From assembly GCA_963422265.1 (NCBI GenBank), contig OY729416.1, forward strand, positions 672,001 to 736,000: a stretch of 64,000 nt of DNA, given 5' to 3'. The position numbers were made by a program, and so were the translations under genes. The notes under the pieces are model-generated. The model had not been told where the DNA came from, searched no databases, and was given only the letters and a program-made list of their open reading frames with translations. This DNA is from Thermodesulfobacteriota bacterium (GTDB lineage Bacteria > Desulfobacterota_D > UBA1144 > Nemesobacterales > UBA2774). Below are positions 11,148-55,976 of the stretch, piece by piece; within the stretch, counting starts at the first letter, position 1, and every line of letters starts with the position of its first letter.

Positions 11148-13967
11148 CTATCGCTTCAGAAAAGCACCATCGCCTGGAGGTGAGAAAAATATACGGTCGT
11201 ATATGTCTCTCACCTCCGCTGTCTTAGAGAGATATTTTTGCTTTAATTTTGCCCCGTCGTAATCCATACCGAGCACGGGGGCGAGTCTTTCAAAATCTCG
11301 TCCGTAGAGATCGTTAATAGACAGGTTATGCAGAAGTCTAAGTTGATTCTCCATCTTCTTAAAAAAATAGAGCCCGTCTTTTAGAGACTTATATTCATTT
11401 TCCAAAATTAGCCCGGCGCCCTTGAGTGCTGCAAGTGCACCCGCTGTATTTTGAACCCTAATCTCCTTATGTTTTTTCCCATACCTGAGTTGGAGCATCT
11501 GGACAATGAACTCAATGTCAACCAACCCCCCCTTTCCCGTTTTAATGTTGAGCTTTTTAGGGGTCTCCTGGGCAATCTCTTTCTCCATACGCTCGCGCAT
11601 ATGCTTAATCTCTTCATGGAAATTTACGGATATGGGATATTCGTAAACAATGCGTTTTATAAGTCTCTTAAGCTTAGCCCCTAGTCTCATGTCACCTGCG
11701 GCTGGAACAGCTCGAATTAGTGATTGTCTCTCCCAAATTTGAGCGCTCTCCTCATGGTATCTCTTAAAGGAATCGTATGAAGTAACAAGCGCACCTGAAC
11801 GCCCAGATGGCCTGAGCCCTAAGTCTATCTTATATGCGAATCCCTCTCCTGTAGAAATTGAAAGAACGGAAATCAACCTCTGTCCAACCCTTGAAAAAAA
11901 CTCGTGATCCTCTCCCTCATAGATGAACATAACGTCAAGATCAGAGCTATAACTCATCTCTCTCCCACCCATTTTACCCATAGCTAGAACAACCATATTA
12001 AGACTTCTTTTCCGTCCATTAGTAGCCTTAGAAACGTGCTTGAACGCTATATCAAGACCTACCTCTAGGACGGCTTCTGCAACCATAGTCAGATACTTGC
12101 ATACGTATAGGGAATCAACTTCATTGTTCAAATCCCTGAGACAGATTCTAAGCGTCTCCATGTGCTTAAACTTTCTTATGGTATCTAGTTGAGCTTCATA
12201 ATCCTTATCCTTGCTAATTGTATTCCTTAAGCCATTTAACATCTCCTCCTTACTGCCATACCCAGTTCTTACATCCTTTAGAATGATTATGTTTAAGTCT
12301 TCGGGATGACTTATAAGGAAATTGGTCAGGTAGCCAGTAGTTGAAAAGAGCTTAGACAATAGCTCAACAATCTCGGGATTCTCTAAAAGTACGGAGTAAA
12401 TGGAGGTCCGCCAGCCTATACCCGCAACAAAACGCTCTAGGTTAAGGAGGGCCGCATCGGGATCCGCACATTTCAGGATACTACTGAGGAAGGCTGGTAT
12501 CACCCTCCTGTTAGTTAACCTTTCGCTTTGCGTAAGTCCAGCCTTTTTCGGATCGAGAAGCTTAGAGAAAATAGTAATAGCATCTTCAGGATACTTAAAC
12601 CCGAGCTTCCTTAAATTTTCAATCTCTTCCTCCTCACTTACGTTCCCTTCGGTCAGGAAGTCCGCAAGCTGCCAGAACTCCTCTCCAATTTCCTCAGTTT
12701 TTTGAGAAGGTTCATAAAAGAGGCTCCTATAAATTTTTGAAACCTCAGACGTCGTCTTCTCAAAAGCTTCCTCAAATCGAGATTGGCTCTCTAACCCAAC
12801 CCTCTTTGCAAGCTTGTCTATATCGTCAGGAGAATCGGGAACTTTATGCGTTTGCCTCTCATCAACGAGTTGTATAGAATGCTCAACCTTTCTAAGAAAA
12901 AGATAAGAAGAGGTGAGTGATTGAAAGATGTCTTCCTCAATAATTTTATAGTCCCTCAATTTTTCAAGCGTTTCAAGGGTATTCCAACCCCTTATCTCCT
13001 CTATCTCCCCTGCGTTCACAAGCTGAAGAGCCTGCACGAAAAACTCAATCTCCCTTATGCCACCCCTACCCAATTTGACGTCTCGCTTCTTGTAGAGTTT
13101 ATCGAGCTTTGTTTTCATATCCTTCAGGTCTTCTATCAGAGTGAAATCAAGGAACTTTTTATATACAAAGGACTCAACGTCATCTATAAACTCTCTACCC
13201 AACTCCATATCCCCAGCCACTGGCCTTGCTTTGATTAGCGCTGCACGCTCCCAAGTATCACCCCAATAATAGTAGTGATCTACAGCGCCTTTTTTAGGAA
13301 CCGCTATTGTGCTTTTGCCCCCGCCCGGCCTCAGAGCCAAATCCACCCTGTATAAAAAACCATCCTCTGAAACGGCGCTCAGAGTTCTTGTTAGCTTCTC
13401 CGAAAGCTTGAAAAACGGATTAGGGTCAGGGGCACTGCTATCATCATAAATATATATAAGGTCAATATCAGAGCTTAAGTTAAGTTCTCTCCCTCCGAGC
13501 TTGCCCATAGCAAGCACGACAAACCGCGTGTCGCCCTCACAGTTAAGCTCTCGACGATAGTAGCGGAGCGTAGCTTCCAGAATTGCCCCAGCAAGGTCTG
13601 AGAGCTCTTCCATAATTTCAGGAAAAGTCCCCAATTCATCTAAGTCACGATAGATAATCCTTGAAAATTCTCTGTACTTATAGTTCCTTAAGTTAGATTC
13701 AAGCTCAGATTGAGAGGACGAGGAATTACGTATTTCTTCTGCCTCCGTTATGTATTCTGCACAGGATTTTTTTTCTAAAGAAGAAGGTTTTGTTAAATAA
13801 TCAAGAATGTAAGGATACTTCAGTGCCATTCTTCCCAAGAAATTGCTGTGCGAGGCGAGCAGACTGAGAATATCCTTTTTCCTAGAGGATATACTCTTAT
13901 TATAATCCGCTTTATAGCGCTCCAAAATTATGCGGGCGTTTTCTGAATCTGGAAAAGTTCTACTCAA
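11148..13967 (-). CDS. glnE: Bifunctional glutamine synthetase adenylyltransferase/adenylyl-removing enzyme
   Basis: Two nucleotidyltransferase domains: MGKLGGRELNLSSDIDL and MGKMGGREMSYSSDLDV; RVDLALRP and KIDLGLRPSGRSG. Confidence 0.95.
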   Translation of the reverse strand: MSRTFPDSENARIILERYKADYNKSISSRKKDILSLLASHSNFLGRMALKYPYILDYLTKPSSLEKKSCAEYITEAEEIRNSSSSQSELESNLRNYKYREFSRIIYRDLDELGTFPEIMEELSDLAGAILEATLRYYRRELNCEGDTRFVVLAMGKLGGRELNLSSDIDLIYIYDDSSAPDPNPFFKLSEKLTRTLSAVSEDGFLYRVDLALRPGGGKSTIAVPKKGAVDHYYYWGDTWERAALIKARPVAGDMELGREFIDDVESFVYKKFLDFTLIEDLKDMKTKLDKLYKKRDVKLGRGGIREIEFFVQALQLVNAGEIEEIRGWNTLETLEKLRDYKIIEEDIFQSLTSSYLFLRKVEHSIQLVDERQTHKVPDSPDDIDKLAKRVGLESQSRFEEAFEKTTSEVSKIYRSLFYEPSQKTEEIGEEFWQLADFLTEGNVSEEEEIENLRKLGFKYPEDAITIFSKLLDPKKAGLTQSERLTNRRVIPAFLSSILKCADPDAALLNLERFVAGIGWRTSIYSVLLENPEIVELLSKLFSTTGYLTNFLISHPEDLNIIILKDVRTGYGSKEEMLNGLRNTISKDKDYEAQLDTIRKFKHMETLRICLRDLNNEVDSLYVCKYLTMVAEAVLEVGLDIAFKHVSKATNGRKRSLNMVVLAMGKMGGREMSYSSDLDVMFIYEGEDHEFFSRVGQRLISVLSISTGEGFAYKIDLGLRPSGRSGALVTSYDSFKRYHEESAQIWERQSLIRAVPAAGDMRLGAKLKRLIKRIVYEYPISVNFHEEIKHMRERMEKEIAQETPKKLNIKTGKGGLVDIEFIVQMLQLRYGKKHKEIRVQNTAGALAALKGAGLILENEYKSLKDGLYFFKKMENQLRLLHNLSINDLYGRDFERLAPVLGMDYDGAKLKQKYLSKTAEVRDIYDRIFFSPPGDGAFLKR

Positions 13968-14271
13968 CGTCTATTCCCCTATTTCTTTTACTGCCATTAT
14001 CACTACTCTCTCTTTTATTTCACTCACATTAAGATCAATAAAACCTTACCATAAAGACAATGCTTTATCCGTAAAAGTTCATAATCAGGCGCTGGATCCC
14101 TATTATGATGAGGATAGGAGAAATGCTTGTTCTAGGGCAACCACTGACGTTATTGTATCTGGTGGCACCGCTGGCCAACCCAAGCTCATAGTTGGTTATG
14201 AAGCTCTTCCTTTTTTTTCGTAGGAGTAACCCTTCCCCAATCAAGTTGGGGACATGTCTTAATACATACAG

Positions 14272-14295
14272 GGATGGATGGATGGATGGATGGAT
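14272..14295. repeat. (GGAT)6 microsatellite
   Basis: Six perfect GGAT units. Confidence 0.95.
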
Positions 14296-14316
14296 TCCTA
14301 CCCCTTCCATCTTTTC

Positions 14317-14383
14317 GTAGGGGTAACACTTGTGGTTACCCATTGCCTTCACACCTTTGGGCGACTACAAGAGTCGCCCCTAC
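14317..14383. repeat. Inverted doublet of GTAG-type REP sequences (REPIN/BIME-like)
   Basis: GTAG-GGGTAACA-CTTGT-GGTTACCC and, in reverse, GTAG-GGGCGACT-CTTGT-AGTCGCCC; both 25 nt with compensatory stem changes. Confidence 0.8.
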
Positions 14384-14601
14384 AGGTAAAGAGGAAATCC
14401 ACCCTGACCCTCCTTTACGAAAGGAGGGGAATATCTTTTACTACTCTCTGAACTCGCCTAATTGCAAAGAGCAACCGAGGAATCTAGTCTTTTCCCCCTC
14501 TCCCTTGGTTGATGAGCCTGTCAAACCAGGTAGAGGGCAGGGGTGAGGTCGTTTTTCCATCATTCCCAACTAGATTGGGAATCCAGAAGGGAGACTAGGG
14601 A

Positions 14602-17106
14602 TCAATTAAAATTATAGGGATCCATGTCTATTGAGACTCTGACGCGTTCAGACCTCTTTGAGGTTAAAGCGAGTATCTTTCTTGACAAGACATGAAGAAC
14701 ATCTGAATTATGAGATTTTAGTAGCATTTGAAAACGGTAGCGGTTTCTGATTTTTCTAATCGGACAAGGGGATGGTCCTAAAACCCGAGCGGTTCCAGAT
14801 GGGAGTTTTGAGATAAGCTCTCGCACTATTTCACCCGTGCTTACGGCGATTTCTGAAGTTTCACTTTCAAATCTTCCTGAAAACCTTACGTTCACAAGCC
14901 TTGAAAATGGAGGGTAATCAAGCTCTCTTCTGAGTTTTATTTCGTTATCTAAAAAACCGATGCTGTCTTGCCTCAACGCATACTTGATACTAGGATGGTC
15001 CGGATCATAAGTCTGGACAATAACATATCCAGGTTCTTCTCCTCTACCAGCTCTTCCCGCTACCTGAGTTACAAGCTGGAAGGTTCTCTCTCCGGAGCGA
15101 AAATCGGACATTCCAAGTGACATATCAGCAGATATGACCCCTACAAGCGTTACTCCAGGAAGATCATGACCTTTTGCAACCATTTGCGTCCCTATAATAA
15201 CATCTATCTCTGCCTTCTGAATCTTATCGTAGAGCTTCAGAAACTTTGTCTTGCCCTGAACAGCATCTCTATCCACCCTTATTACCGAGGCTTTAGGCAC
15301 AAGACGCTTGAGTTCTTTCTCAACCTTTTGCGTTCCTACTCCATAAACCCTGACGCTAGCCCCACAATTTGCACAACCTGCGGTGAGCTTCTCGGAAAGA
15401 CCGCATAGATGACACATACGCATCCCTGACTCCAATCGGGAAACAGAATTTTTCTTAACGTGATACGTGAGTGAAACCGAGCAGTTAGGACACTTCTGCA
15501 CGTCCCCGCAGGCTGGGCAGATAATAAGCGTAGAGAACCCCCTACGATTTAAAAAGAGTATAGTTTGACGTTTATTATTGTAATTATCTTGAATCGCCCG
15601 CTCGAGTTTTGTGGAAAATATATTATCCCTACTCTCCCCCCGCTTAACGTCCACGGGGACGTGCTTCATATCTATGACGCTCACTTGAGGTAAAGACCTG
15701 TTTTCAACCCTCAGAGGAAGCTTGAGATAATGAAACTTGTGCTTGACGGCGTTACAATACGACTCAAGGGAAGGAGTGGCGGAACCGAGAACTACGACGG
15801 ATGAAGTTATTTTCCCTAAAACGAGCGCGAGGTCCCTAGCGTTATAAGCGGGGGATTCATCTTGTTTATAGCTACTATCATGCTCTTCATCCACTACGAT
15901 CATGCCCAGATTCTTAAAGGGGGCGAATATTGCCGATCTTGCACCTATTAATACCTTAACTTCTCCCGTGCTAGCCATTCGCCAAGCGTCAAACCTCTCG
16001 CCGTCTGAAAGGGCACTATGAATTACCGCAACTTGGTTTCCTAATCTACCCTTGGCTCTTCTTACAAGCTGAGGGGTAAGGGAGATTTCAGGAACTAACA
16101 TCACAACCTCTTTACCTTGCTTAATAACCTCTTCCGTTGTGCGGAGATAAACCTCCGTCTTACCGCTACCGGTCACTCCATGAAGGAGAAACGGGGAGTA
16201 CTTACCCGCTTGAACGAACTCTCTTAGCCTACTACAAGCGATTTCTTGATCTACAGTGAGTTCAGGAGGGAAGTCCTTAGGAATCTTCATCTCGGAGAAT
16301 GGATCCCTTGATACTTTCTCAAGTCTGATCTTTATGAGACCCCTTTCCTCAAGCCAGTTGAGATGAATGCCCAAGTTCCCGAATATCTCCTTTAAATCAG
16401 AAAGCGGCATACTTCCATGCGTAAGCACGTATTCCAAAATCTGAGCCTTAGCGGGTTTCCTCTCTAAAAAGCGGCTCTTCAGATTAGCACCATCCCCCGC
16501 AACTATTATCTTTTCCATCTTTACCTTAGGATTGGATTTAAGCTCATAGTTAAACTCAATCAGACTTCTTCGTCTAAGCGAATTAAGTAACTCATTTCCC
16601 TGATGGGACTCAGAGACACGGGTGGCACTTTCAATCAGGGCAAGTAACTTCTTGGAGGTAATGCCTTTCGCGTTATAGACCGTGCGAAGAACCAAAAGCT
16701 CTCGTGCAGATAGCTCCCCATCATCTAACGCCTTGATTCCGTTATCCGTAATCCCGATTAGCCTACGTAGGCGGACGCCAAGCCCCCCTGGGTGCGCCAC
16801 CTTAAGCACTATTCCAAGAGACGACACATAGTAGTTAGCTACCCATTTTAAGAATTCAAGCCTCTTTTGGTCAAACAGAGGCTTCTCGTCAATAACGTCT
16901 AGGATGGAGCGGGGCTTTATATTGGGAGGTGGCTTTTCAAACCCAACGATAAATCCAACGTGCCTACTATTTCTAAAAGGAATAAGGACACGCTTTCCAA
17001 GTTGCACCCCATCCTTTAGATTATCAGGGACTTTGTAAGAATAAAATTCACCCCCATCCCCGACTTTAAGTGGTACAGGAACTGCAACCTGAACAGTTTT
17101 ACACAT
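14602..17106 (-). CDS. priA: Primosomal protein N' (replication restart helicase)
   Basis: LLHGVTGSGKTEVY, VDEEHD, LGSATPS, FLNRRGFS, four CxxC pairs, GTQMVAKGHD, QVAGRAGR. Confidence 0.97.
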   Translation of the reverse strand: MCKTVQVAVPVPLKVGDGGEFYSYKVPDNLKDGVQLGKRVLIPFRNSRHVGFIVGFEKPPPNIKPRSILDVIDEKPLFDQKRLEFLKWVANYYVSSLGIVLKVAHPGGLGVRLRRLIGITDNGIKALDDGELSARELLVLRTVYNAKGITSKKLLALIESATRVSESHQGNELLNSLRRRSLIEFNYELKSNPKVKMEKIIVAGDGANLKSRFLERKPAKAQILEYVLTHGSMPLSDLKEIFGNLGIHLNWLEERGLIKIRLEKVSRDPFSEMKIPKDFPPELTVDQEIACSRLREFVQAGKYSPFLLHGVTGSGKTEVYLRTTEEVIKQGKEVVMLVPEISLTPQLVRRAKGRLGNQVAVIHSALSDGERFDAWRMASTGEVKVLIGARSAIFAPFKNLGMIVVDEEHDSSYKQDESPAYNARDLALVLGKITSSVVVLGSATPSLESYCNAVKHKFHYLKLPLRVENRSLPQVSVIDMKHVPVDVKRGESRDNIFSTKLERAIQDNYNNKRQTILFLNRRGFSTLIICPACGDVQKCPNCSVSLTYHVKKNSVSRLESGMRMCHLCGLSEKLTAGCANCGASVRVYGVGTQKVEKELKRLVPKASVIRVDRDAVQGKTKFLKLYDKIQKAEIDVIIGTQMVAKGHDLPGVTLVGVISADMSLGMSDFRSGERTFQLVTQVAGRAGRGEEPGYVIVQTYDPDHPSIKYALRQDSIGFLDNEIKLRRELDYPPFSRLVNVRFSGRFESETSEIAVSTGEIVRELISKLPSGTARVLGPSPCPIRKIRNRYRFQMLLKSHNSDVLHVLSRKILALTSKRSERVRVSIDMDPYNFN

Positions 17107-17334
17107 ATTTAGTTGGAGATTCTAATCATTTTAGAAATATGGCGCAATAGACCGCTTCATAGGAACTGAATTTTATTATAGGAGCTGCAAAAATAGATGA
17201 GGTTCGTAGCACTTAGGCAAGTATTTCACAAATACCCCTTCTGCTAGTGTGGAAGAACGACTGCAAAGGGTCGCCCCTTACCTATTCGTAAAACTGGAGA
17301 CCAACCACGTGGATAATTTTATCTCGTCTCAAAG

Positions 17335-20526: not shown

Positions 20527-21318
20527 TTAGACTCTCCCGATTTCAGAGCCTTTTGTTAAACTAGAGCCTTTGATTTGGTTACTATCTTTTAAGAAAGACA
20601 CGCGTCCACCGTAGGTAAGGCGCAGGTTATCCTCGGTAAAAACGTCGCTAACGGCGCCGCTCGCCATGAGGCACACGTTTAGAAGCGTCACCCAATCAAA
20701 ATACTCGGGAACCGTTTGGAGATCGTGATGAACGACAACAACGGTTTTTCCGCCCGAGCGTAATTCTTGAAGTAAAGATATTATGGCGCGTTCTGTAGTC
20801 GCGTCTACCCCTTGAAAAGGCTCGTCCATAAGATATATCTGGGCATCCTGCACGAGTGCACGTGCAAGGAAAACACGTTGCTGCTGCCCACCCGAAAGCT
20901 GGCTTATCTGACGCCCCGCATAATCAGACATCCCCACTTTTTCAAGGGCTTCAAGAGCCATTTTAAGCTCCTTTGTCCCAGGCCTTTTTATCCACCCTAA
21001 AGCCCCATAACGACCCATCATAACCACGTCCCTCACGCTAGTCGGAAAATCCCAGTCAACGCTACCCCTCTGCGGAACGTAACCTACAAGCCGACGGTTC
21101 TTAGAATATGACTCGCCGTATATAAGCACCCTACCCGCAGCGGCGTTAACCAGATTAAGGATCGATTTTATTAAGGTAGTCTTGCCAGCCCCGTTGGGAC
21201 CTACGATTGACATAAGCACGCCTTCTGGCACGTGAAGGTCAACATCCCAAAGAACGGGTTTTTCTTTATACGCCACCGTTAAATCTTCAATTTCAATTGC
21301 TCCGCGCTTCATTTTCAT
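20527..21318 (-). CDS. troB: Metal ABC transporter ATP-binding protein
   Basis: [42 protein letters not shown]. Confidence 0.93.
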
Positions 21319-29065: not shown

Positions 29066-32000
29066 TCACTCTACCGTTAGTTTTGCCTTCTTGGCTTTGG
29101 ACTTCTTAGCAATAAACTTTTTAAGTTCCCTTCCATCCGTTTTAAGAAGCTGCTTGAGGCGTGACGCGTTTACCTCAGCAACAATAATATCGCCTACTTC
29201 CATGTGAACGTTCCCATAAATTTGAAGAGCCTGCATACCCTTGGTCTGTTTCTGGTTGTCCTCAGTGGGGCTTACGTAATGGACTGAGATAGCCTTATAC
29301 CTATGAATCAGGAACAAATGTATCAAAGCCATCAATCTCTTCTGGCGATATTTAGCGTCAAACGTATTTTGATCCCTTACGGAAATTGTGGGTTTACCCG
29401 TGCGGTCATGGATCGTAGTGAAGACAACATCCGCTATCTTTTTCTCTTCTTCGTCATAAACCCCTAGTTCAAGGATATCCGAACCAGCGGTATGAGGCCT
29501 TAGCCGAACGTGGAAATATCCAGGGAAATTATTATGAGCCGTCCATAACTCTAGCCACTGCTCTAAAAGTTTAGGTGGCACCTCAGTCTCCACCAAGTGC
29601 TGGACCTGAGTAGAACCCTTACCCATAGCCTTAGTGGTAGCGGTGCGACCCGAAGAAGCAGAAAGGGCGCTATCCAGACGTGGACCACCAACCAAGGTCT
29701 GCGGCGTTTTGTAAGGCGAATCAAGCAGTCTGAACTTCCTCTGCAACCTAGCCAGCGCCAGCATACCATCTTGTCTAAGCGCAGTGGCGAACTCTTCGGT
29801 GGCAAGTCCGTCAATCTGGTGACCTCCGTAAGTAATAAAATCAAAAACGTAACCGAGCTTGCCGATCTCCTCGGGGAAAACTCTCATCTCATCCTCGGTC
29901 ATACCCGTAGTATCCCAGTTGAAGGATGGCGACAAATTGTAAGCAAGCATCTTATCAGGATAGACAGCGTGAATAGCATTGGCGAACTGCCTTGCTTCTT
30001 CTAAATTAGCGGTCTTAGTCTCCATCCATATAAGATCGGCGTAGGGTGCTACTGCTAAGGACTTAGCAATCGCATATTCAATACCGCCTTTCACTTGATA
30101 GTAGCCCTCAGGGGTTCGGGCAAGTTCACAATCCCACGAAGCCTCAACCCCCATTGACCTAGCTTGTTCACGTGCATTGTGAAACGAAGTGTGAGCCGCC
30201 AGCTCAAACCATTCATCAATACTCATACTCAGCTTCCTGCCCTCTTCTATCTGAAATTCCATCTTGTCGGCAACCGCCTGCGCGAACGTCATAAGACCGG
30301 ACTCCACTTCCCATACCTCAACAAACTTTGACACCGCATTGTCAAGCGGCTTGGTAATACTCCTTTCCTGTCCATCTTTAAGTGCCTGAATACTTTCATC
30401 AATAATTAAAGTCAAGCCCACTTGATCAAACCATTTATAAGTCTCTCCATATTCAGAATCAGAAAGTTGATACAAGAGATGACCGTTGACGTCGGTTACA
30501 CCTTTATCAAAGAATCTTTTAAGTATCGCCAGATAACAATTCTTATAGCCAGGTATGTTAATATTTGTAGCTCCAAGGATGAATGGGTGGTCACGCTCGT
30601 CACCCCTTCCGTCAAGAAGGGTCGCCGCCTCGGCATCAGTTCTGGCAACGATAATCCCCGGGACCTTCATAATATCAAGCTGGAATCTAGCGGCGTTTAA
30701 TCTCTTTATTTGCTCGTCAACTGGGACAAGCACTTTACCCCCTTGGTGTCCACACTTTTTTGTGCCGGGCTTTTGATCCTCAATGTGATATCCAGTAACC
30801 CCAACTTCAACAAACCTTCGTATGAGATTCCTCACATGGGCATCTCCGCCATGTCCCGTATCAGCGTCAGCAATAATAAAAGGCCTGTAGTCATAGTGTG
30901 GGGTAGATTTTCTCTCCTTATCAGACATTCTTGACCTTAGAAACGTCTGGTTTTTATCAGCAGTAAGTAGAGCGCGCACTAAAACCGCCGCTTCATCGGG
31001 CACTTGGCTAAGCGGATAGCTCGCCAGATCTGAACCAGGGTCCTCCTGAACGGATCCCTTCGCCGATGTTGCCCATCCCCCCAGGTAGATAGCCTCAACC
31101 CCGATCCTTTTCATGACAACCGCCTGACCCGGAGAGTAAGGACCAAAACTAGTAACCTGCTTGCCCTGTGAAAAGAGAACTCTAAGACGTCTATAAAACT
31201 CCTCAGAATATCTTCTCGCTATAGGATAGTCGTTCTCAAGAGTGCCCCTCTGCTGCACAACTTGGCGGGCGGAGTAAAGACGTCTAATACCCTTAAACCG
31301 AGGCCTCGCAAACCATTCTTTTGTTGCTTGCACTTCTCTTTCAAATGAATCAAGCTCATCCTCATAAAAAGTATCAAAACCACCTTCAGGCATAAAGTCT
31401 AAATTCTCGGTAATTCTACTTCCATCCTTCTTAAACGCGTCCATATATTGCTTTATTCTTATTTTAGCAGTAGGCAGATCGTGGTTGTTTAAGTTAATAT
31501 TCAACAGGTCAATATACCAAGGCGTTTTAACATCATCCTGAACGTAAGTCTCTACTATTTCCCTCGCAATCGGCAACGTAGTAGGCTTGGAGTTATCATG
31601 AACATCTTTGTCCTTTGCTTTAAGAAGCTTGTCGTATTCCTCGGCTAAGAGCTTTTTGAAGAGTCCAACCGTGAACACGTCTTCCTTATTCACTTTCGTT
31701 TCTTTGTCAGCTTCTGTAAGCTTTGCGCCCTTATGTACCCACTCCCAGAGTATGCTCAGGCGAATCTCCCCTGTGGCAGCGTCTTCCATAAGATAGAGTA
31801 TATTATCGTCACCAAAGAAATCCGCTGGCTTAAGAGCCGCTGCCTGAAAGCCCTGGCCAAAGGCGTTACCATATTGAAGCGCCACGCTAATCAAATTCCT
31901 CGCTCCCCTAATTGTTCTTGGCGCCGTTTCGAGAAGCCTAAGTCCATCGGCGTCCTGATCAGTATAAGTGAGAATAGGGAAACTTCTTCCAAGCTGATTG

Positions 32001-33316
32001 TCGTCCCCAACCCTTTGCCACACAGGTCTTATGATGTGAACCATCTTCCAATGCGCTACCCACTTTCCACTGGCGCCCTCTTTCTGTTCCCTAACCGCCC
32101 CGGCGAGCGCTTTCTCCATACTACTCTTAACACCCTCTTCTGCACCTACTGGAATATTGGGCTCCATCCCACCCTGCCATAAAGCAAAGTTGCCGTTCAC
32201 GTCAGGGATATTCACAGCCCGTCTTGCGCGGTCCTCGTAATTCCTCATATAACCATAAGTCATGGTGATTGATTCTATATTGGGATTAACGAAATCTATA
32301 TCCCAAGCCATAGCGTCTGAGACACTGTTTATATAGTCCCACCTTCCCGTGTTGAATCCCACGAAATGCCTGCCTAAAGCCGCTCTGATCTCCATTAGTT
32401 GGAACGTCGCCTCAATCTGTTCTATCAACACATAAACCTTAATGGTGCCGACTGGAATATCGAGATGATCTTCTAAAGCGGAAATGAGCTGATTCCAGAA
32501 AGAGGCTTCCTCGGCCGTTTGAATCTTAGGCAGATACAACACTATAGAAGAACCCGTTTTATCAAGCGTCTGGTAGTTGTTCACTACGTAAAGTGCCAAG
32601 TCCGCTATTGAAGCCGAAAGCGCTAGACCATTCTCGTCCCGTATATGCCTATCGTCTAGGTGTAAACCGCGGGTGCGGAAAATTTTAGTGGTAAAATCAA
32701 GCTGTTTACGCCAGTCGCTTATTATCTCTTTATTGAAAAAACCCGTAGCCCATTTGTTCATCCCTTTAGATACCTGCTCGGCAATGTTCAAAAAAACAGG
32801 GTCTTTACTAATGGCTAGTTTTAGATTTCTCTGGTTATCAAGGGACATAGACGTAATTTGTCCCAGAGCGTCCTCACCATCAAACATCCATCCATCTGCG
32901 CCGGATAACAAAGCGTAGGCTACGTTACGTATGCTCTTTTCAACCGGCGAATTAGGCTTAGCAGCTGGTCCAGTTCCCTGCACCCATTGTCTCTGTAAAT
33001 CATGAGGAATTTCAGAACCGACAAACTTTCCATCCCTTGCATCTTGAACCACTATATTTGTACTCGGTATAAAGTCGTTAGGATCAAGGAATCTAATTCT
33101 CTCCCTGTTCCTAAACCTCTGCACCCTTCTGGCGTATCGTTTTTCCATAAGCACCTTCTGATCCTTATTAAAAACGGACAGTGCCTTGAGGGCATCAACA
33201 ACCTCGGGGGTATATATATCGGTATATTCACTTTCCAGACCATCTCTTATCTGTAAACCTCTTGGGACTGAAATAGTTTTTGATGCTTCATTAGATAATC
33301 TGCGAACGGTACTCAT
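29066..33316 (-). CDS. Bifunctional malate synthase / ICL2-type isocitrate lyase fusion
   Basis: aa 1-~640 malate synthase motifs ([48 protein letters not shown]); from ~aa 650 ICL motifs ([52 protein letters not shown]); ICL2-like C-terminal domain ([23 protein letters not shown]). Confidence 0.92.
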
Positions 33317-33705: not shown

Positions 33706-35106
33706 CTAGCTTAGGTCTTCTTTTAGACTCTTAACTATTCCTTCCACCATTTTCTTTCCATCCCCGAAAAGCATAAGGGTATTGTCCGCAGCGAATAGAG
33801 GATTAGGAATACCAGCGAATCCTGGACTTAGACTTCGCTTGATCACGACAACCGTCTTTGAGTAATCTACATCTAAAATTGGCATCCCCGCTATTGGGCT
33901 CTGAGGATCCGTCCTTGCAACTGGGTTAACCACATCGTTCGCTCCAATAATAATAGTAACATCAACCTGCCTAAAGCCAGGGTTAATATCATCCATATCT
34001 TTAAGCCTGTCATAAGGAATATCAGCTTCTGCAAGAAGAACATTCATATGTCCAGGCATACGTCCCGCCACGGGATGCACACCGAACTCAACAATAGCGC
34101 CATGACCCTCTAGCAAGTCGAAAAGCTCTCTTACCGCGTGCTGCGCCTGAGCAACCGCCATTCCATAACCGGGGACTACGCATACCTTTTTAGCTCCCTC
34201 AAGAAGCATCGCAACCTCTTCGGGGGAAGTCGCTTTCACCTTGCCCTTATAAACGTCATCTGCTGAAGGTCCCCCTTCAACGGCGCCAAAAGTGCCGAAT
34301 AGGACATCAGTCAAAGAACGGTTCATCGCTTTACACATTATTATCGTTAATATGATTCCCGATGCTCCCACCAAAGTTCCCGCCACGATAAGCACAGTGT
34401 TATGAAAGACAAACCCCGTTGCGGCAGCGGCTAATCCAGAGAATGAATTTAAGAGAGCTATAACGACCGGCATATCCGCCCCGCCTATTGGAATCACAAA
34501 TAGAATTCCCAGTACGGAAGCAGCTATAACCATCAGCCAATACAATGTTGAAGATCCAGGATAAACCACCATAAAGTAGGCAAAAACCAGCGTTAAAAGT
34601 GCTAGAATGATTTTGACTATTTGATCTCCGGGATAGCGGACTGATCCCTCATCCGCGAGACCCTGAAGCTTGCCGAATGCGACAAGACTTCCCCAGAACG
34701 TAACCGCACCTATGAGCCCAGAAACAAACGTAGCAATAGAAGACTGAGGGTTCACCGATTCAGGACCTATTAGGATGGACGTTTCAAGTAATGCAGCCCC
34801 TGCAACTAAGACGGATGCTATTCCACCGAACCCGTTATACAAGGCGACTAGCTGAGGCATTGCGGTCATTTGAATCCTGATAGCCAAAGCGGATCCTATT
34901 CCACCCCCAACTATGATCCCAGCGAATATTATCCAGTAACTGACGATATTCTTATGAAGCAAAGTTACCAAGACGGCTAAGAGCATTCCCAGAGCGCCGA
35001 GCAGGTTTCCCCTGACTGCCGTTCTAGGATGGGAAAGCCCCTTGAGGCCAAATATAAACAAAGCCGCAGCTATTAAATAGATGATGTTGACGAGCTCAGA
35101 AGACAT
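33706..35106 (-). CDS. pntB: NAD(P) transhydrogenase subunit beta
   Basis: MTAMPQLVA, PIGGADMPVVI, VPGYGMAVAQAQH, HPVAGRMPGHMNVLLAEA, GANDVVNP. Confidence 0.97.
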   Translation of the reverse strand: MSSELVNIIYLIAAALFIFGLKGLSHPRTAVRGNLLGALGMLLAVLVTLLHKNIVSYWIIFAGIIVGGGIGSALAIRIQMTAMPQLVALYNGFGGIASVLVAGAALLETSILIGPESVNPQSSIATFVSGLIGAVTFWGSLVAFGKLQGLADEGSVRYPGDQIVKIILALLTLVFAYFMVVYPGSSTLYWLMVIAASVLGILFVIPIGGADMPVVIALLNSFSGLAAAATGFVFHNTVLIVAGTLVGASGIILTIIMCKAMNRSLTDVLFGTFGAVEGGPSADDVYKGKVKATSPEEVAMLLEGAKKVCVVPGYGMAVAQAQHAVRELFDLLEGHGAIVEFGVHPVAGRMPGHMNVLLAEADIPYDRLKDMDDINPGFRQVDVTIIIGANDVVNPVARTDPQSPIAGMPILDVDYSKTVVVIKRSLSPGFAGIPNPLFAADNTLMLFGDGKKMVEGIVKSLKEDLS

Positions 35107-35108
35107 AT

Positions 35109-35390
35109 TTAATCCTTCCTTTTGAACATCTCTAACATTCGGTTGGTCACCATAAATCCACCCACAACATTAATTGTCGCAAGAGCAACTGCAAGAAATC
35201 CAAGCACGGTAGTAAGCAACGTGACCTGAGTCCCCGCTGATAGTATTGCCCCTATTAGAATAATTCCTGATATAGCGTTTGAGCCCGACATTAAAGGGGT
35301 ATGGAGCGTAGGAGGAACCTTAGTTATTACCTCAAAACCCACAAAAGCAGCTAGAACAAATATGGTAAACGCCATTGCAAAGCTATCCAT
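35109..35390 (-). CDS. pntAb: NAD(P) transhydrogenase subunit alpha, membrane part
   Basis: KVPPTLHTPLMSGSNAISG, INVVGGFMVTNRMLEMF. Confidence 0.95.
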   Translation of the reverse strand: MDSFAMAFTIFVLAAFVGFEVITKVPPTLHTPLMSGSNAISGIILIGAILSAGTQVTLLTTVLGFLAVALATINVVGGFMVTNRMLEMFKRKD

Positions 35391-35420
35391 TTTGTAGCCC
35401 TCCCGAATTTAGTCCTCTTC

Positions 35421-36569
35421 CTATAATCGCAAACTTTCCCTTACCCGATCGTTGACTACTTTGCCGTCGTCAGTAATAAGAGTTTCCCTTAGTATTTCAT
35501 CCTCTAAATCTATGTAGAGCTTTTCATCTTTAACCATTAAAAGAAGAAGATTTGCAATATTCTTGGAATACATCTGACTCGCATGATAAGGAACGCTTGA
35601 CGGAACGTTTTGCGGACCTATGACAGTTACTCCGTCTTTCCTAATAGTCTTACCCGCTTCCGTAAATTCACAATTACCGCCGCTCTCAGCCGCAAGATCT
35701 ACTATTACGGATCCCTGACCCATACCTGCAACCATCTCCTTAGTAACCAGAATCGGCGCTTTCCTGCCTGGAATTGCCGCTGTAGTTATAACGGCATCGC
35801 TTTCAGCAATAACCTTAGCCATGAGATCCTGCTGCTTTTTGTAAAACTCTTCATCCATCTCTTTTGCGTAACCACCCTCGTCTTCAGAGTCCCCTGCTTC
35901 AAGCTCAAGCTCTACGAATTTCGCCCCCAAGCTCTGCACCTGCTCTTTGACGGCAGGACGAACGTCATAAGCCGAGACTACGGCTCCTAGACGATTGCAT
36001 GTAGCTATCGCCTGCAGTCCCGCCACCCCAGCACCAACAACAAAAACACGAGCTGGTGTGATCGTTCCGGCGGCGGTCATCATCATCGGAAACATTCTTG
36101 CAAGGGATTGCGCCGCTATCAGAGCAGCTTTGTAGCCTGCAATGTTAGCCTGTGAAGAAAGAACATCCATGCTCTGGGCTCGCGTGATACGCGGAACAAG
36201 CTCCAGCGCAAATGCCTTAACCCCTTTTAATGCTAGGGCATTTACCGCCTGCTTATTAGTCAAAGCATCTAAAAGTCCTATTAATATCTTACCTTTCCCA
36301 AGCTTCTTTAGATCCTCAGCGTCACTATCGGGATTGCAACCTACTACCCTTACTTGCAAGAGCACGTCCGCCTTCGCAAATACTTCATCGCGGTCGGAAA
36401 TAACCGCTCCTTGCTCTTTATACATCTCATCAGTAAAGCCCGCTTCTAATCCTGCACCCGACTCTACGCGCACGGTGAAGCCCGCATTACTAAGCGCAGG
36501 TAGTCCACTAGGAATTAATGCCACCCGTCTTTCCCCGGCAAACGTTTCTTTTAAGATTCCAACGATCAT
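35421..36569 (-). CDS. pntAa: NAD(P) transhydrogenase subunit alpha, domain I
   Basis: GERRVA, PRITRAQSMDVLSSQ, GAGVAGLQA, TTAAIPGRKAP, DLAAESGGNC; start placed at MIVGILKE (upstream TTG at 36596 is possible). Confidence 0.95.
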   Translation of the reverse strand: MIVGILKETFAGERRVALIPSGLPALSNAGFTVRVESGAGLEAGFTDEMYKEQGAVISDRDEVFAKADVLLQVRVVGCNPDSDAEDLKKLGKGKILIGLLDALTNKQAVNALALKGVKAFALELVPRITRAQSMDVLSSQANIAGYKAALIAAQSLARMFPMMMTAAGTITPARVFVVGAGVAGLQAIATCNRLGAVVSAYDVRPAVKEQVQSLGAKFVELELEAGDSEDEGGYAKEMDEEFYKKQQDLMAKVIAESDAVITTAAIPGRKAPILVTKEMVAGMGQGSVIVDLAAESGGNCEFTEAGKTIRKDGVTVIGPQNVPSSVPYHASQMYSKNIANLLLLMVKDEKLYIDLEDEILRETLITDDGKVVNDRVRESLRL

Positions 36570-36886
36570 ATTATTGCTTCGACCACCATTCTCCAATTTT
36601 TACATTCCATCTTTACCCTCTTTACATTCCCTTCTTCCCCTTCTTCCCTTTTTCTGTTACCAACAAATAGTTATATCAGTATCTATACCTGTTAGCTTTT
36701 AATAATTCAAGACTATATATCAAATTTGCTTACACATTATATGAAAAGCTATCAAAGATTAGAAATTTTATTCATTAATGAAAACTAGTCAAGTTAAAGC
36801 AAATAAGATTTGCTAAACACTTCCAATGCAAAATTTTTATGATATGATACCCACCTCTAAAAATAGATTTCAATAGGGTTTATATT

Positions 36887-38198: not shown

Positions 38199-40550
38199 AT
38201 GACCAAATCGCTTGTAATCGTAGAATCTCCCGCGAAAGCTAGGACTATAAAAAAATACCTTGGCGAAGGTTTTAACGTAGAAGCTTCATCAGGGCATCTA
38301 ATAGATCTCCCTGTCAGCGAGCTCGGCGTTGATATTGAAAACGACTTCGCTCCCCAATACGTAGTTATAAAGGGAAAGAACAAATTCCTAAATCAACTCA
38401 AAAAAGCCGCTAAGAACGCACATAAAGTCTATTTAGCGTCTGACCCCGACAGAGAAGGCGAGGCGATTGCATGGCACATTGCGGAGAGACTGAACATAAG
38501 AGACAGGTCTGAGAGGATTCTTATTCGCGAAATTACGGAACAGGCGGTAAAAGATTCTATAAATAACCCTACGACGCTTAGCCAAGACCGGTTTGAAGCA
38601 CAGCAAGCCAGAAGAATCCTCGATCGTCTTGTGGGCTATCAAGTAAGTCCGATACTGTGGAGGAAACTCAAGAAGGGCCTCAGCGCCGGAAGGGTGCAGA
38701 GCGTAGCTTTAAGACTCATAGTTGAAAGGGAACGAGAAATCAAGGCTTTCAAACCACTGGAATATTGGACGATAGAATCTAAATTAAAGCGTCCTCAGGA
38801 TAATGAAAATGAGGCTTTCAAGGCTACTCTTACTAAATTTGACAGTAGAAAAACATCTATGTCAAGCGAAGAGCAGGCGAACTCAATACTGAATTCAATA
38901 AAGCACGAGAAATTTACAGTTTCAAAAGTTGAAAGAAAGGATAAGAAAAGAAACGCCCAGCCCCCTTTTATAACCAGCACGCTACAGCGTGAGTCATCAC
39001 TAAAGCTTAGGTTCTCGGCAAAGAGAACTATGGCTCTTGCCCAAAAGCTCTATGAAGGAGTAGAGCTTGGCAAAGAAGGTCCCGTTGGCTTAATTACCTA
39101 TATGAGGACGGATTCCGTGAGGACTTCGGACTTAGCCTTGAGCGAGGTGAGGGCTCACATTAAAGAGTTCTATGGAGAGTCCTATCTTCCTCAAAAGCCC
39201 AATTCATTTAAGATTAAGAAATCCGCTCAGGATGCACACGAATGTATAAGACCTACTTTCGTAAATAAGACCCCTGATTCGGTAAAAGAATTCCTACAAA
39301 AGGATGAACACAATCTTTACAAACTCGTATGGCAAAGATTCGTAGCCTCCCAGATGAGACCAATGATATACGATCAGACAACCCTTGACACTGAGGCAGG
39401 TAGAGGCATTTTCCGCTCCACTGGCTCTATTGTTAAATTTCCCGGTTTTTCCACCATCTACCTTGAAGGTAAGGAAGAGGAGGAAAAACAGGAAAGCGAT
39501 GAAACTAGAAAACTTCCAGAGGTAAAGAAAGGAGATGTCTTAGACCTCCTTGGTATTGAAGGGAAGCAGCACTTTACCCAGCCACCCCCACGATTCACCG
39601 AAAGCTCTCTTGTGAAAGAACTTGAAGACAAGGGAATAGGACGACCTTCAACTTACGCCTCTATTCTTTCTACGATTCAGGATCGGGAATACGTTATAAA
39701 AGAAAAGAACAAGCTTCAGCCAACAACCTTGGGAATATCGGCAAATGATCTCTTAATACAGGGATTTCCTCAAATCATGGACGTAAAGTTCACCGCCAAT
39801 ATGGAAAGCAACCTAGATGACATTGAGGATGGAAACGTCAATTGGATAGAGCTTTTGAAAAGCTTCTATGAAGATTTATCAAGCCGTTTGGAGCAAATCC
39901 AAAAAGGGATTCAAACCGATGTCAAGTGTGATAAATGCGGCGCGCCGATGATAATAAAATTGAGTAGAAACGGGGAATTCTTATCATGTTCAACATATCC
40001 CGAATGTAAGAATGCAAAGCCATTCGAATATGATCCAGACGGCAACGTTAAACTCATAGAAAAGGTAGAGCCAAAGTTAATTGATAGTATCTTGTGCGAT
40101 AAATGCAACTCTCCTATGGCTATTAAAAACAGCAGGAGAGGCGAGTTCCTCGGATGCTCGGCTTATCCTAAATGCAAGAATGCAAAGCCATTCGAATATG
40201 ATCCAGACGGCAACGTTAAACTCATAGAAAAGGTAGAGCCAAAGTTAATTGATAGTATCTTGTGCGATAAATGCAACTCTCCTATGGCTATTAAAAACAG
40301 CAGGAGAGGCGAGTTCCTCGGATGCTCGGCTTATCCTAAATGTAAGAACGCAAAGCCATTCGAATATGATTCTCAAGGTAGGATCAAGGTTCTCGAAAAA
40401 GAGGAGCCACAAATAAGAGAAGATATAAAATGTGAAAAATGTGGAAAGCCCATGGCTTTAAGAAAAGGGAGGTTCGGGAACTTTCTTGGGTGCACCGGCT
40501 ATCCTAAATGTAGAAACGTCATTAAAACCGAGGATGAGATTAGTCACTAA
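38199..40550 (+). CDS. topA: DNA topoisomerase I with four C-terminal zinc ribbons
   Basis: IVESPAKA, ASDPDREGE, SAGRVQS, ITYMRTDS (catalytic Tyr), GIGRPSTY. Confidence 0.97.
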   Translation: MTKSLVIVESPAKARTIKKYLGEGFNVEASSGHLIDLPVSELGVDIENDFAPQYVVIKGKNKFLNQLKKAAKNAHKVYLASDPDREGEAIAWHIAERLNIRDRSERILIREITEQAVKDSINNPTTLSQDRFEAQQARRILDRLVGYQVSPILWRKLKKGLSAGRVQSVALRLIVEREREIKAFKPLEYWTIESKLKRPQDNENEAFKATLTKFDSRKTSMSSEEQANSILNSIKHEKFTVSKVERKDKKRNAQPPFITSTLQRESSLKLRFSAKRTMALAQKLYEGVELGKEGPVGLITYMRTDSVRTSDLALSEVRAHIKEFYGESYLPQKPNSFKIKKSAQDAHECIRPTFVNKTPDSVKEFLQKDEHNLYKLVWQRFVASQMRPMIYDQTTLDTEAGRGIFRSTGSIVKFPGFSTIYLEGKEEEEKQESDETRKLPEVKKGDVLDLLGIEGKQHFTQPPPRFTESSLVKELEDKGIGRPSTYASILSTIQDREYVIKEKNKLQPTTLGISANDLLIQGFPQIMDVKFTANMESNLDDIEDGNVNWIELLKSFYEDLSSRLEQIQKGIQTDVKCDKCGAPMIIKLSRNGEFLSCSTYPECKNAKPFEYDPDGNVKLIEKVEPKLIDSILCDKCNSPMAIKNSRRGEFLGCSAYPKCKNAKPFEYDPDGNVKLIEKVEPKLIDSILCDKCNSPMAIKNSRRGEFLGCSAYPKCKNAKPFEYDSQGRIKVLEKEEPQIREDIKCEKCGKPMALRKGRFGNFLGCTGYPKCRNVIKTEDEISH
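40008..40370 (+). repeat. 168-bp in-frame tandem duplication in topA (two copies plus a partial third)
   Basis: 40008-40175 and 40176-40343 differ only at the last base; 40344-40370 is a partial copy with one mismatch. Confidence 0.95.
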
Positions 40551-55792: not shown

Positions 55793-55820
55793 TCTGGATT
55801 CCTGCTCGGAGGCAGGAATG
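55793..55820 (+). repeat. Short palindromic repeat
   Basis: TCTGG-ATTCCTGC-TCGGAG-GCAGGAAT-G, perfect 8-bp stem. Confidence 0.75.
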
Positions 55821-55976
55821 GGAAATACACCCCTTCTTGCGCTTCCATATTGAGCTATATTTCTCACAAGCAAATGAGGATTGAGAAATAACATCTTTCC
55901 CTATTCCACACCATTACTTCACCATTACCTGCTTAAAACTCTCGACACCAAATGGCATGGTTTAACAAGTAATCCT

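Follow-up and report, generated by a model that had tools for sequence, protein, structure and literature searches.

Short in-frame insertions in loops of the replication-restart protein PriA and their likeness to REP sequences

Results

The priA gene and its relatives

This report concerns four short segments carried in frame by the priA gene in a 64,000-nt stretch of a Thermodesulfobacteriota genome (contig OY729416.1, positions 672,001–736,000, assembly GCA_963422265.1), referred to below as the window, with positions counted from its first letter. PriA is the replication-restart helicase, also called primosomal protein N′. The gene lies on the minus strand at 14602–17106 as an uninterrupted open reading frame (ORF) of 834 aa, with a GC content of 45% in a window of 43%. 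Its product matches the NCBIfam primosomal protein N′ model at E = 2e-243, with 826 residues set against 784 profile positions, and matches the solved PriA structures of E. coli and Klebsiella at about 1e-114 (E. coli PriA, E = 3e-114). Pfam identifies PriA_3primeBD, DEAD, Helicase_C, Zn_ribbon_PriA and PriA_C domains. The architecture is complete, comprising a 3′-DNA-binding domain, a winged helix, two helicase lobes, an embedded zinc module with four CxxC motifs and a C-terminal domain. An alignment with 23 relatives shows no variation in the Walker A motif, the DEEH motif or the eight Cys positions, and the catalytic and zinc-binding residues are all kept.

The closest PriA proteins come from metagenome-assembled genomes labelled Candidatus Dadabacteria, Thermodesulfobacteriota or 'Deltaproteobacteria', at a maximum identity of 65%. 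Nearly all of the best 119 homologues are 802–818 aa long, compared with 834 aa here, and the residues of the four segments (5 + 8 + 9 + 8 = 30) equal the difference between 834 and 804. Alignments were made with 23 relatives, then with all 119 homologues, and in addition with eight distant PriA proteins and that of E. coli. For comparison at the DNA level, 80 loci of relatives were returned, 78 of them with distant PriAs; the two useful ones are L001 (64% identity) and L002 (47%).

Four in-frame inserts specific to one lineage

In the alignment with 23 relatives, gaps of 8, 9 and 8 residues cleanly match three segments of the protein, which we call inserts B, C and A, and a further gap of 5 residues corresponds to insert D. 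The original prediction, which proposed that palindromic repeat units had entered priA in frame, had placed its two 24-mers correctly on the DNA and had anticipated clean gaps of 8, 8 and 9 residues at exactly these positions; it had missed the fourth insert. The gaps persisted when the alignment was extended to 119 homologues.

Insert A (15418–15441, equivalent to the 15419–15442 given earlier) reads on the plus strand, antisense to priA. Its 24 nt (GC 58%) encode S556–R563, SRLESGMR, in the Cys-rich zinc module, and these 8 residues are missing in 119/119 homologues. When 15419–15442 is removed in silico, the sequence becomes ...NSVMCH..., which is the zinc-module spacing common to all relatives, as had been expected; the short His-to-Cys spacing is also kept in the eight distant PriAs (8/8) and in E. 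coli PriA. Because of insert A, the Pfam zinc-ribbon match, which spreads 34 residues over 26 profile positions, scores 20.9 bits against a cut-off of 26 bits. Insert B (16597–16620, minus strand, sense to priA; 24 nt, GC 58%) encodes R163–G170, RVSESHQG, in the winged-helix region, and none of the 119 homologues has residues in its columns. The same holds (0/119) for insert C (15637–15663, minus strand; 27 nt, GC 70%), which encodes H482–G490, HVPVDVKRG, and lies between the helicase strand 474–479 and the helix 499–510 at the start of helicase lobe 2. It had been put forward as a third candidate in another loop, and the alignments bear this out. The loops of distant PriAs at this site are somewhat longer than those of close relatives, and the loop is thus variable in length. 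Insert D (17056–17070, plus strand) is only 15 nt long and encodes L13–D17, LKVGD, in the 3′-DNA-binding domain; it is possibly a truncated repeat unit. Four of the 119 homologues do not extend over its site; of the other 115, 112 are short there, and the three exceptions (P0031, P0056 and P0063) carry an 8-aa insert of their own (e.g. NVVRAGSL) in the same N-terminal loop.

With Firmicutes PriAs as the root of the tree, the PriA of the window falls inside the clade of short-loop proteins; the insert segments are therefore gains on this branch. An AlphaFold2 model of PriA has a mean predicted local distance difference test (pLDDT) score of 72 and 13 segments below 50, of which 13–18, 162–168, 486–493 and 548–564 coincide with the four inserts, and all inserts lie in or beside coil. 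Low pLDDT is expected where the alignment is empty, and the model therefore indicates only that nothing contradicts a position in surface loops, as had been proposed. Taken together, the alignments show lineage-specific in-frame insertions in poorly conserved loops of PriA, the zinc module included.

Other relatives (816–818 aa, e.g. P0033 and P0044) have a 12-aa insert near alignment column 134. With the 8-aa insert of P0031, P0056 and P0063, this suggests that PriA loops have been struck independently in sister lineages.

Sequence relationships among the inserts

The edges of the inserts were taken from the protein alignment, independently of any likeness in DNA, and all six pairs were compared. 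Inserts A and B are identical at 17 of 24 positions in opposite orientation and lie 1.2 kb apart, a match that had been reported earlier and held on re-examination. As an a-priori pair they have a p value of 5e-4, since 10 of 19,946 GC-matched random pairs of segments from the window reach 17/24, and the gapped local score gives p = 2e-4. The similarity begins and ends at most 1 nt from the insert boundaries defined by the alignment. An 8-nt-seed repeat search of 13900–17200 does not list the pair, because its longest common exact word is shorter than the seed. Inserts C and D align with one 3-nt gap (p = 0.011, gapped), and A and D have a gapped p of 0.025, with 16/24 identities over 17053–17076. 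The remaining three pairs are at chance level, those of C with A and with B among them. MAFFT fits all four inserts to a single 24-nt consensus, C being the unit with 3 additional nt.

On that consensus, A and D read on the plus strand in different codon phases, and B and C read on the minus strand in the same phase. There are thus three different combinations of orientation and phase, which places the likeness in the DNA and rules out convergence at the protein level. The inserts are also richer in GC (60% overall) than priA. From these comparisons we consider A and B very probably to be copies of one sequence, and C and D plausibly to be diverged or truncated relatives of the A/B unit.

Hairpin character

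Folded as DNA, A and B each reach −2.6 kcal/mol, which is marginal against segments of the window (p about 0.07). C, at −6.2 kcal/mol (p 0.002–0.006), is the best hairpin of the four, and D forms none (p = 1.0). The stems comprise 6 bp with a bulge in A, 7 bp with one G-T pair in B and a perfect 6 bp in C; D has none. Folding as RNA gave z scores of −1.1 for A, −1.95 for B (−9.6 kcal/mol, the best), −0.9 for C and +0.2 for D. The description of the inserts as palindromic units therefore stands for C, which alone folds clearly better than controls, and is weak for the other three.

priA compared with other genes of the window

Six other genes, amounting to about 3,030 aa, were compared with close relatives for private internal insertions of 5–9 aa, and none was found. 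For five neighbouring genes, encoding GlnE, a 480-aa phosphatase-like protein, a tetratricopeptide-repeat protein, MntR and glutaminyl cyclase, comparison with the orthologues of L001 and L002 gives private internal insertions of 1–4 residues only; TopA, aligned with 40 relatives, has none except a 56-aa duplicated zinc ribbon. RecN, MutL and DprA do not exceed their NCBIfam profiles in length. By our arithmetic, the probability that all four inserts would fall in PriA if scattered evenly over the 3,867 compared residues is about 0.002. A genome-wide tendency to short insertions is thus ruled out for the six comparable genes, and priA is exceptional, an insertion hot spot among the genes compared.

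Hairpins outside priA

Three intergenic hairpins of the window were considered as possible relatives of the inserts. One, a perfect 8-bp hairpin at 14562–14582, follows the stop codon of priA at a distance of 20 nt; another, with a perfect GC-rich 7-bp stem, is at 14234–14252 in the spacer between priA and glnE; and the third, a perfect 8-bp hairpin at 55798–55819, lies between convergent genes. The last had been linked to insert A from the outset, and the match is real (18/24 over 55799–55822), but it came from a scan of the whole window and does not survive correction for scanning. The three hairpins resemble the inserts and each other; unrelated hairpins of the window score equally well in an all-against-all comparison. 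Outside or at the foot of their stems (14574–14586 and 55794–55806), the hairpins at 14562–14582 and 55798–55819 have two words in common, a 6-mer to one side and, to the other, a 9-mer that is identical in both and present nowhere else in the window. Pair scores of the 14562–14582 hairpin reach p of about 5e-4 and are not significant in the all-against-all comparison of roughly 100 hairpins. From their shared words, these two hairpins might mark a small repeat family of their own.

The priA-glnE spacer (13968–14601, 635 bp) is packed with GC-rich perfect hairpins, at 14234–14252, 14321–14341, 14359–14379, 14408–14428 and 14562–14582. The sole GC-rich hairpins of the window that bear a GTAG tag are found here, at 14317–14341 (plus strand) and 14359–14383 (minus strand); they stand head to head and differ in sequence. 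The spacer also contains a 20-nt direct repeat (14215–14234 and 14312–14331, 90% identical) and a (GGAT)6 microsatellite at 14272–14295. In L001 the corresponding spacer measures 430 bp and, read by eye, apparently holds a small ORF rich in lysine and arginine; in L002 the gap is 7 bp.

Several further candidates in the window were set aside. Segments at 21025–21048, in an ABC ATPase gene, and at 35708–35731, in pntA, each match insert A at 17/24 positions, but the proteins align without gaps to solved homologues and the matches are chance likenesses in ordinary conserved codons. GC-rich hairpins inside the enolase gene (58240) and leuC (60230) are not insertions, as the encoded proteins fit their family profiles from end to end with no excess length. 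Rfam models identify only a tRNA-Arg in the window.

Discussion

Comparison with known short repeats

The nearest parallel is with repetitive extragenic palindromes (REPs) that lie inside genes. In the available part of their survey, Di Nocera, De Gregorio and Rocco (2013, BMC Genomics 14:522, PMC3733652) sort REPs into GTAG- and CGTC-tagged superfamilies of stem-loop-forming units of 20–40 bp, with stems mostly of 6–9 bp. Single intragenic REPs encode 7–8 aa, and some genes carry two, as does that of the HrpA helicase of O. terrae; intragenic copies are over-represented in genes for replication and repair, and often a species has no tagged ORFs besides these (PMC3733652). The same source equates the Rickettsia palindromic elements RPE-4 and RPE-6 with CGTC REPs. 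The inserts in priA conform to this description in several respects, being in frame (24, 24, 27 and 15 nt, or 8, 8, 9 and 5 aa), several to a gene, present in both orientations, provided with G-T pairs in stems and located in a gene of replication and repair. The comparison with in-frame palindromic elements made in the original prediction was thus an apt one. They depart from REPs, as that survey portrays them, in that their stems are weaker, a conserved GTAG or CGTC head is lacking, and the 64-kb window holds at most seven look-alikes, four of them in priA, rather than many copies. The host, from a Dadabacteria-like phylum, also differs from the published cases. The inserts are therefore better called REP-like than REPs, as they lack both the terminal tag and, within 64 kb, multi-copy status. 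In the available text and supplements of PMC3733652, neither priA nor the string 'primosom' appears among the tagged genes. We found no published report of such inserts for priA or for Dadabacteria, papers on Dadabacteria repeats being judged by title and the start of the abstract.

A candidate mechanism, by analogy, is offered by REPINs, short hairpin repeats that are mobilised in trans by the REP-associated tyrosine transposase (RAYT) of the IS200/IS605 type (Bertels and Rainey 2011, PMC3116915, in the part available). REPINs are inverted REP doublets, whereas the units in priA are single and 200–1,200 nt apart, and no RAYT is encoded in the window. The term 'small dispersed repeats' also occurs in PMC3116915.

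Rickettsia palindromic elements (RPEs) likewise insert in frame in ORFs, are absent from orthologues and are translated as extra surface segments. They were reportedly first described by Ogata et al. in 2000. The classical RPE-1 is a long hairpin of about 100–150 bp and forms a clear multi-copy family; the units in priA, at 15–27 nt, are of a different size. Nearer in size are the very small, mobile-looking dispersed repeats of cyanobacteria, of about 21–27 nt, which Elhai et al. are said to have described in 2008. The likeness is one of unit size. MITEs, or miniature inverted-repeat transposable elements, are typically longer than 50 bp and have target-site duplications. The units in priA are far smaller, and no such duplication is visible at them. 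What they have in common with MITEs, as described in the available part of PMC10969869, is that MITEs are non-autonomous, have inverted-repeat ends and are able to sit in frame in genes.

Origin of the inserts

We favour, while judging it evenly poised between right and wrong, a reading in which the inserts are old insertions of a REP-like unit that were filtered for reading frame and loop position and are now passenger loops. Once this lineage had parted from its closest sequenced kin (PriA about 65% identical), a GC-rich, REP-like imperfect palindrome of about 24 nt would have entered priA in several copies, at no fewer than two and probably four sites. Survivors would be those that kept the frame (24, 24, 27 and 15 nt), introduced no stop codon and fell in surface loops only, and they would now be translated as hydrophilic loop extensions of 5–9 residues in an otherwise intact PriA. 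Each unit is free of stop codons in four or five of its six frames, so translatable insertions would be easily obtained. On this reading the inserts are old, given the 7 of 24 positions at which A and B are unlike, and they are most likely passengers with little functional effect. By analogy with REPs and REPINs and their IS200/IS605-type RAYT transposases, we infer that the unit belongs to a repeat family mobilised in trans. The REP-like, GTAG-tagged hairpins just downstream of priA were counted in favor of this reading.

A number of results weigh against it. Against a null of segments that contain hairpins, the p value of the A/B match rises to 3.8e-3, or about 0.02 after six tests, and A, B and D do not stand out in how stably they fold as hairpins. 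Because the nearest PriA is only 65% identical, an empty site cannot be demonstrated at the DNA level. The A/B consensus pattern, with up to 3 mismatches allowed, matches only A and B in the 64-kb window. A hidden Markov model (HMM) built from seven sequences, namely inserts A–D and the hairpins at 14234–14252, 14562–14582 and 55798–55819, found nothing in the window beyond its training set, the next match having E = 2.4; in 1.36 Mb from other genomes, among them L001 and L002, it gave a single match, at E = 7.7. When each training sequence was left out in turn, three of the seven were recovered (A, D and the hairpin at 14233) and four were missed (B, C and the hairpins at 55799 and 14562); the 14234–14252 hairpin was the top match from outside the training set when it was omitted, at E = 0.72. 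Correction for scanning leaves no significance in the links between the inserts and the intergenic hairpins. A looser class of TCCC...GGGA hairpins numbers 16 in the window, compared with 9 ± 4.4 in Markov shuffles, at a density of 0.25 per kb here and 0.18 per kb across 78 unrelated loci; neither comparison shows clear enrichment, and we discarded the class as a family. The expectation that a profile of the unit would turn up more copies than chance was thus disappointed in 64 kb.

No conserved GTAG or CGTC tag is present on the aligned units, whose heads are CGCA (A), CGTG (B), CCCA (D) and CACG plus TC (C, which contains CGTC), and tag counts in the window are close to chance (GTAG, 3 observed and 2.8 expected; CGTC, 4 and 2.0). 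Codon alignment with L001 and L002 and a repeat search of 13900–17200 revealed no target-site duplication at any insert. A nuclease or transposase gene flanked by the repeat had been suggested; among the ORFs of the window that were scanned (all 49 of at least 100 aa and 5 shorter ones), none encodes a transposase or nuclease, the IS200/IS605 (Y1) type included.

The main rival explanation is local copying without transposition, in which templated repair or template switching at replication copied short GC-rich, hairpin-prone DNA from one place to another in and around priA and no dispersed family was involved. We consider it unlikely, if a serious contender. Six of the seven look-alikes lie within 2.9 kb (14.2–17.1 kb), with none in the other 50 or so genes of the window; the inverted copies A and B belong to the same gene and are separated by 1.2 kb; a GGGGAT/GGGGGT pair after insert D resembles a 6-nt tandem duplication; the priA-glnE spacer is rich in hairpins and local direct repeats; and neither a transposase nor a target-site duplication was found in the window. 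The usual signature of template switching is nonetheless missing, as no insert is a direct or reverse-complement copy of its own flanks, and A and B, which differ at 7/24 positions, are neither of them freshly copied from the other. The clustering of REPs in repair genes, as far as PMC3733652 describes it, suits a family better. Ordinary, independent indels in loops on a long isolated branch, alike in sequence by chance, would fit the length of the branch (65% identity to the nearest relative), the tolerance of indels at the sites of C (longer loops in distant PriAs) and D (an 8-aa insert in three relatives), the absence of a significant match between C and A or B, and the chance 17/24 matches that scans of the window yield. 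This is improbable, however, given that A and B form an a-priori pair (p = 2e-4 to 4e-3) with similarity bounded by the insert edges, that sites A and B are constant in length across 119 relatives, that six other genes on the same branch are free of such inserts (the all-in-PriA probability of about 0.002), and that the inserts have 60% GC in a gene of 45%. Combining the six pairs by Fisher's method gives about 3e-4 with the random null and about 0.01 with the hairpin null, by our own arithmetic and from pairs that are not independent.

Selection could have acted whatever the origin, with loops, or hairpins in mRNA or DNA, being kept because they change PriA through partner binding, evasion of a phage inhibitor or regulation of its own mRNA. 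Four inserts in one essential gene might suggest as much, as might the place of one of them in a zinc module whose spacing does not vary among 119 relatives, and Di Nocera et al. (PMC3733652) speculate that it is no accident that genes of replication and repair carry REP tags. The inserts are, however, known from a single sequence; the peptides are short, hydrophilic and modelled at low confidence, the hairpins are weak, and no datum requires a function, which leaves this explanation very doubtful. We also regard as a long shot an ultra-small mobile element, a one-hairpin, codon-multiple unit of 24 nt, devoid of GTAG/CGTC tags, with a preference for priA and its flank. An assembly or sequencing artefact is scarcely credible. 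The inserts are known from a single genome, with no second sequence to confirm them, but four codon-multiple, stop-free insertions placed in loops of an otherwise perfectly conserved ORF fit selection and not sequencing error. The original prediction is partly supported. Insertion of related GC-rich DNA in frame in PriA loops, as it proposed, is well supported, and the mobility of the unit, like a genome-wide family of it, is conjectured from precedent.

Significance

On present evidence no new kind of element is revealed here. The inserts illustrate a rarely seen but previously described route by which tiny repeats add loops to DNA-repair proteins, and they would add an independent case of a puzzling pattern, tiny palindromic repeats translated inside proteins of replication and repair, in a phylum that branches deeply and has been little studied. 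Four inserts occur in one essential gene, and one of them lengthens a zinc-module loop of constant length in 119 relatives, which makes it a test by nature of the change that the Cys-rich region tolerates. If the reading as an ultra-small element were true, the repeated insertions in priA, zinc module included, would reflect a real mechanism of targeting or selection tied to replication and repair proteins, and would bear on the unexplained gene bias noted in the available part of Di Nocera et al. 2013 (PMC3733652).

Other genes of the window

Three further loci were noted for their gene structure. In topA (38199–40550, plus strand), a 168-nt tandem duplication at 39996–40370 (2.2 copies, 97% identical) adds an extra zinc-ribbon module of 56 aa (residues 673–728) that is absent from all 40 aligned relatives (40/40, from 120 returned). 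The TopA of the window itself gave no 100% match among the proteins of the collection searched. An ORF of 1,416 aa at 29066–33316 on the minus strand combines a malate synthase A region (residues 47–576) with an isocitrate lyase region (from residue 661) and appears, from these matches, to be a fused enzyme of the glyoxylate shunt. At 35109–36596 and 33706–35106, both on the minus strand, the transhydrogenase subunit PntA is divided ahead of pntB into two parts, one soluble (391 aa) and one in the membrane (93 aa); this arrangement is ordinary and resembles the Rhodospirillum-type enzymes that are its best matches.

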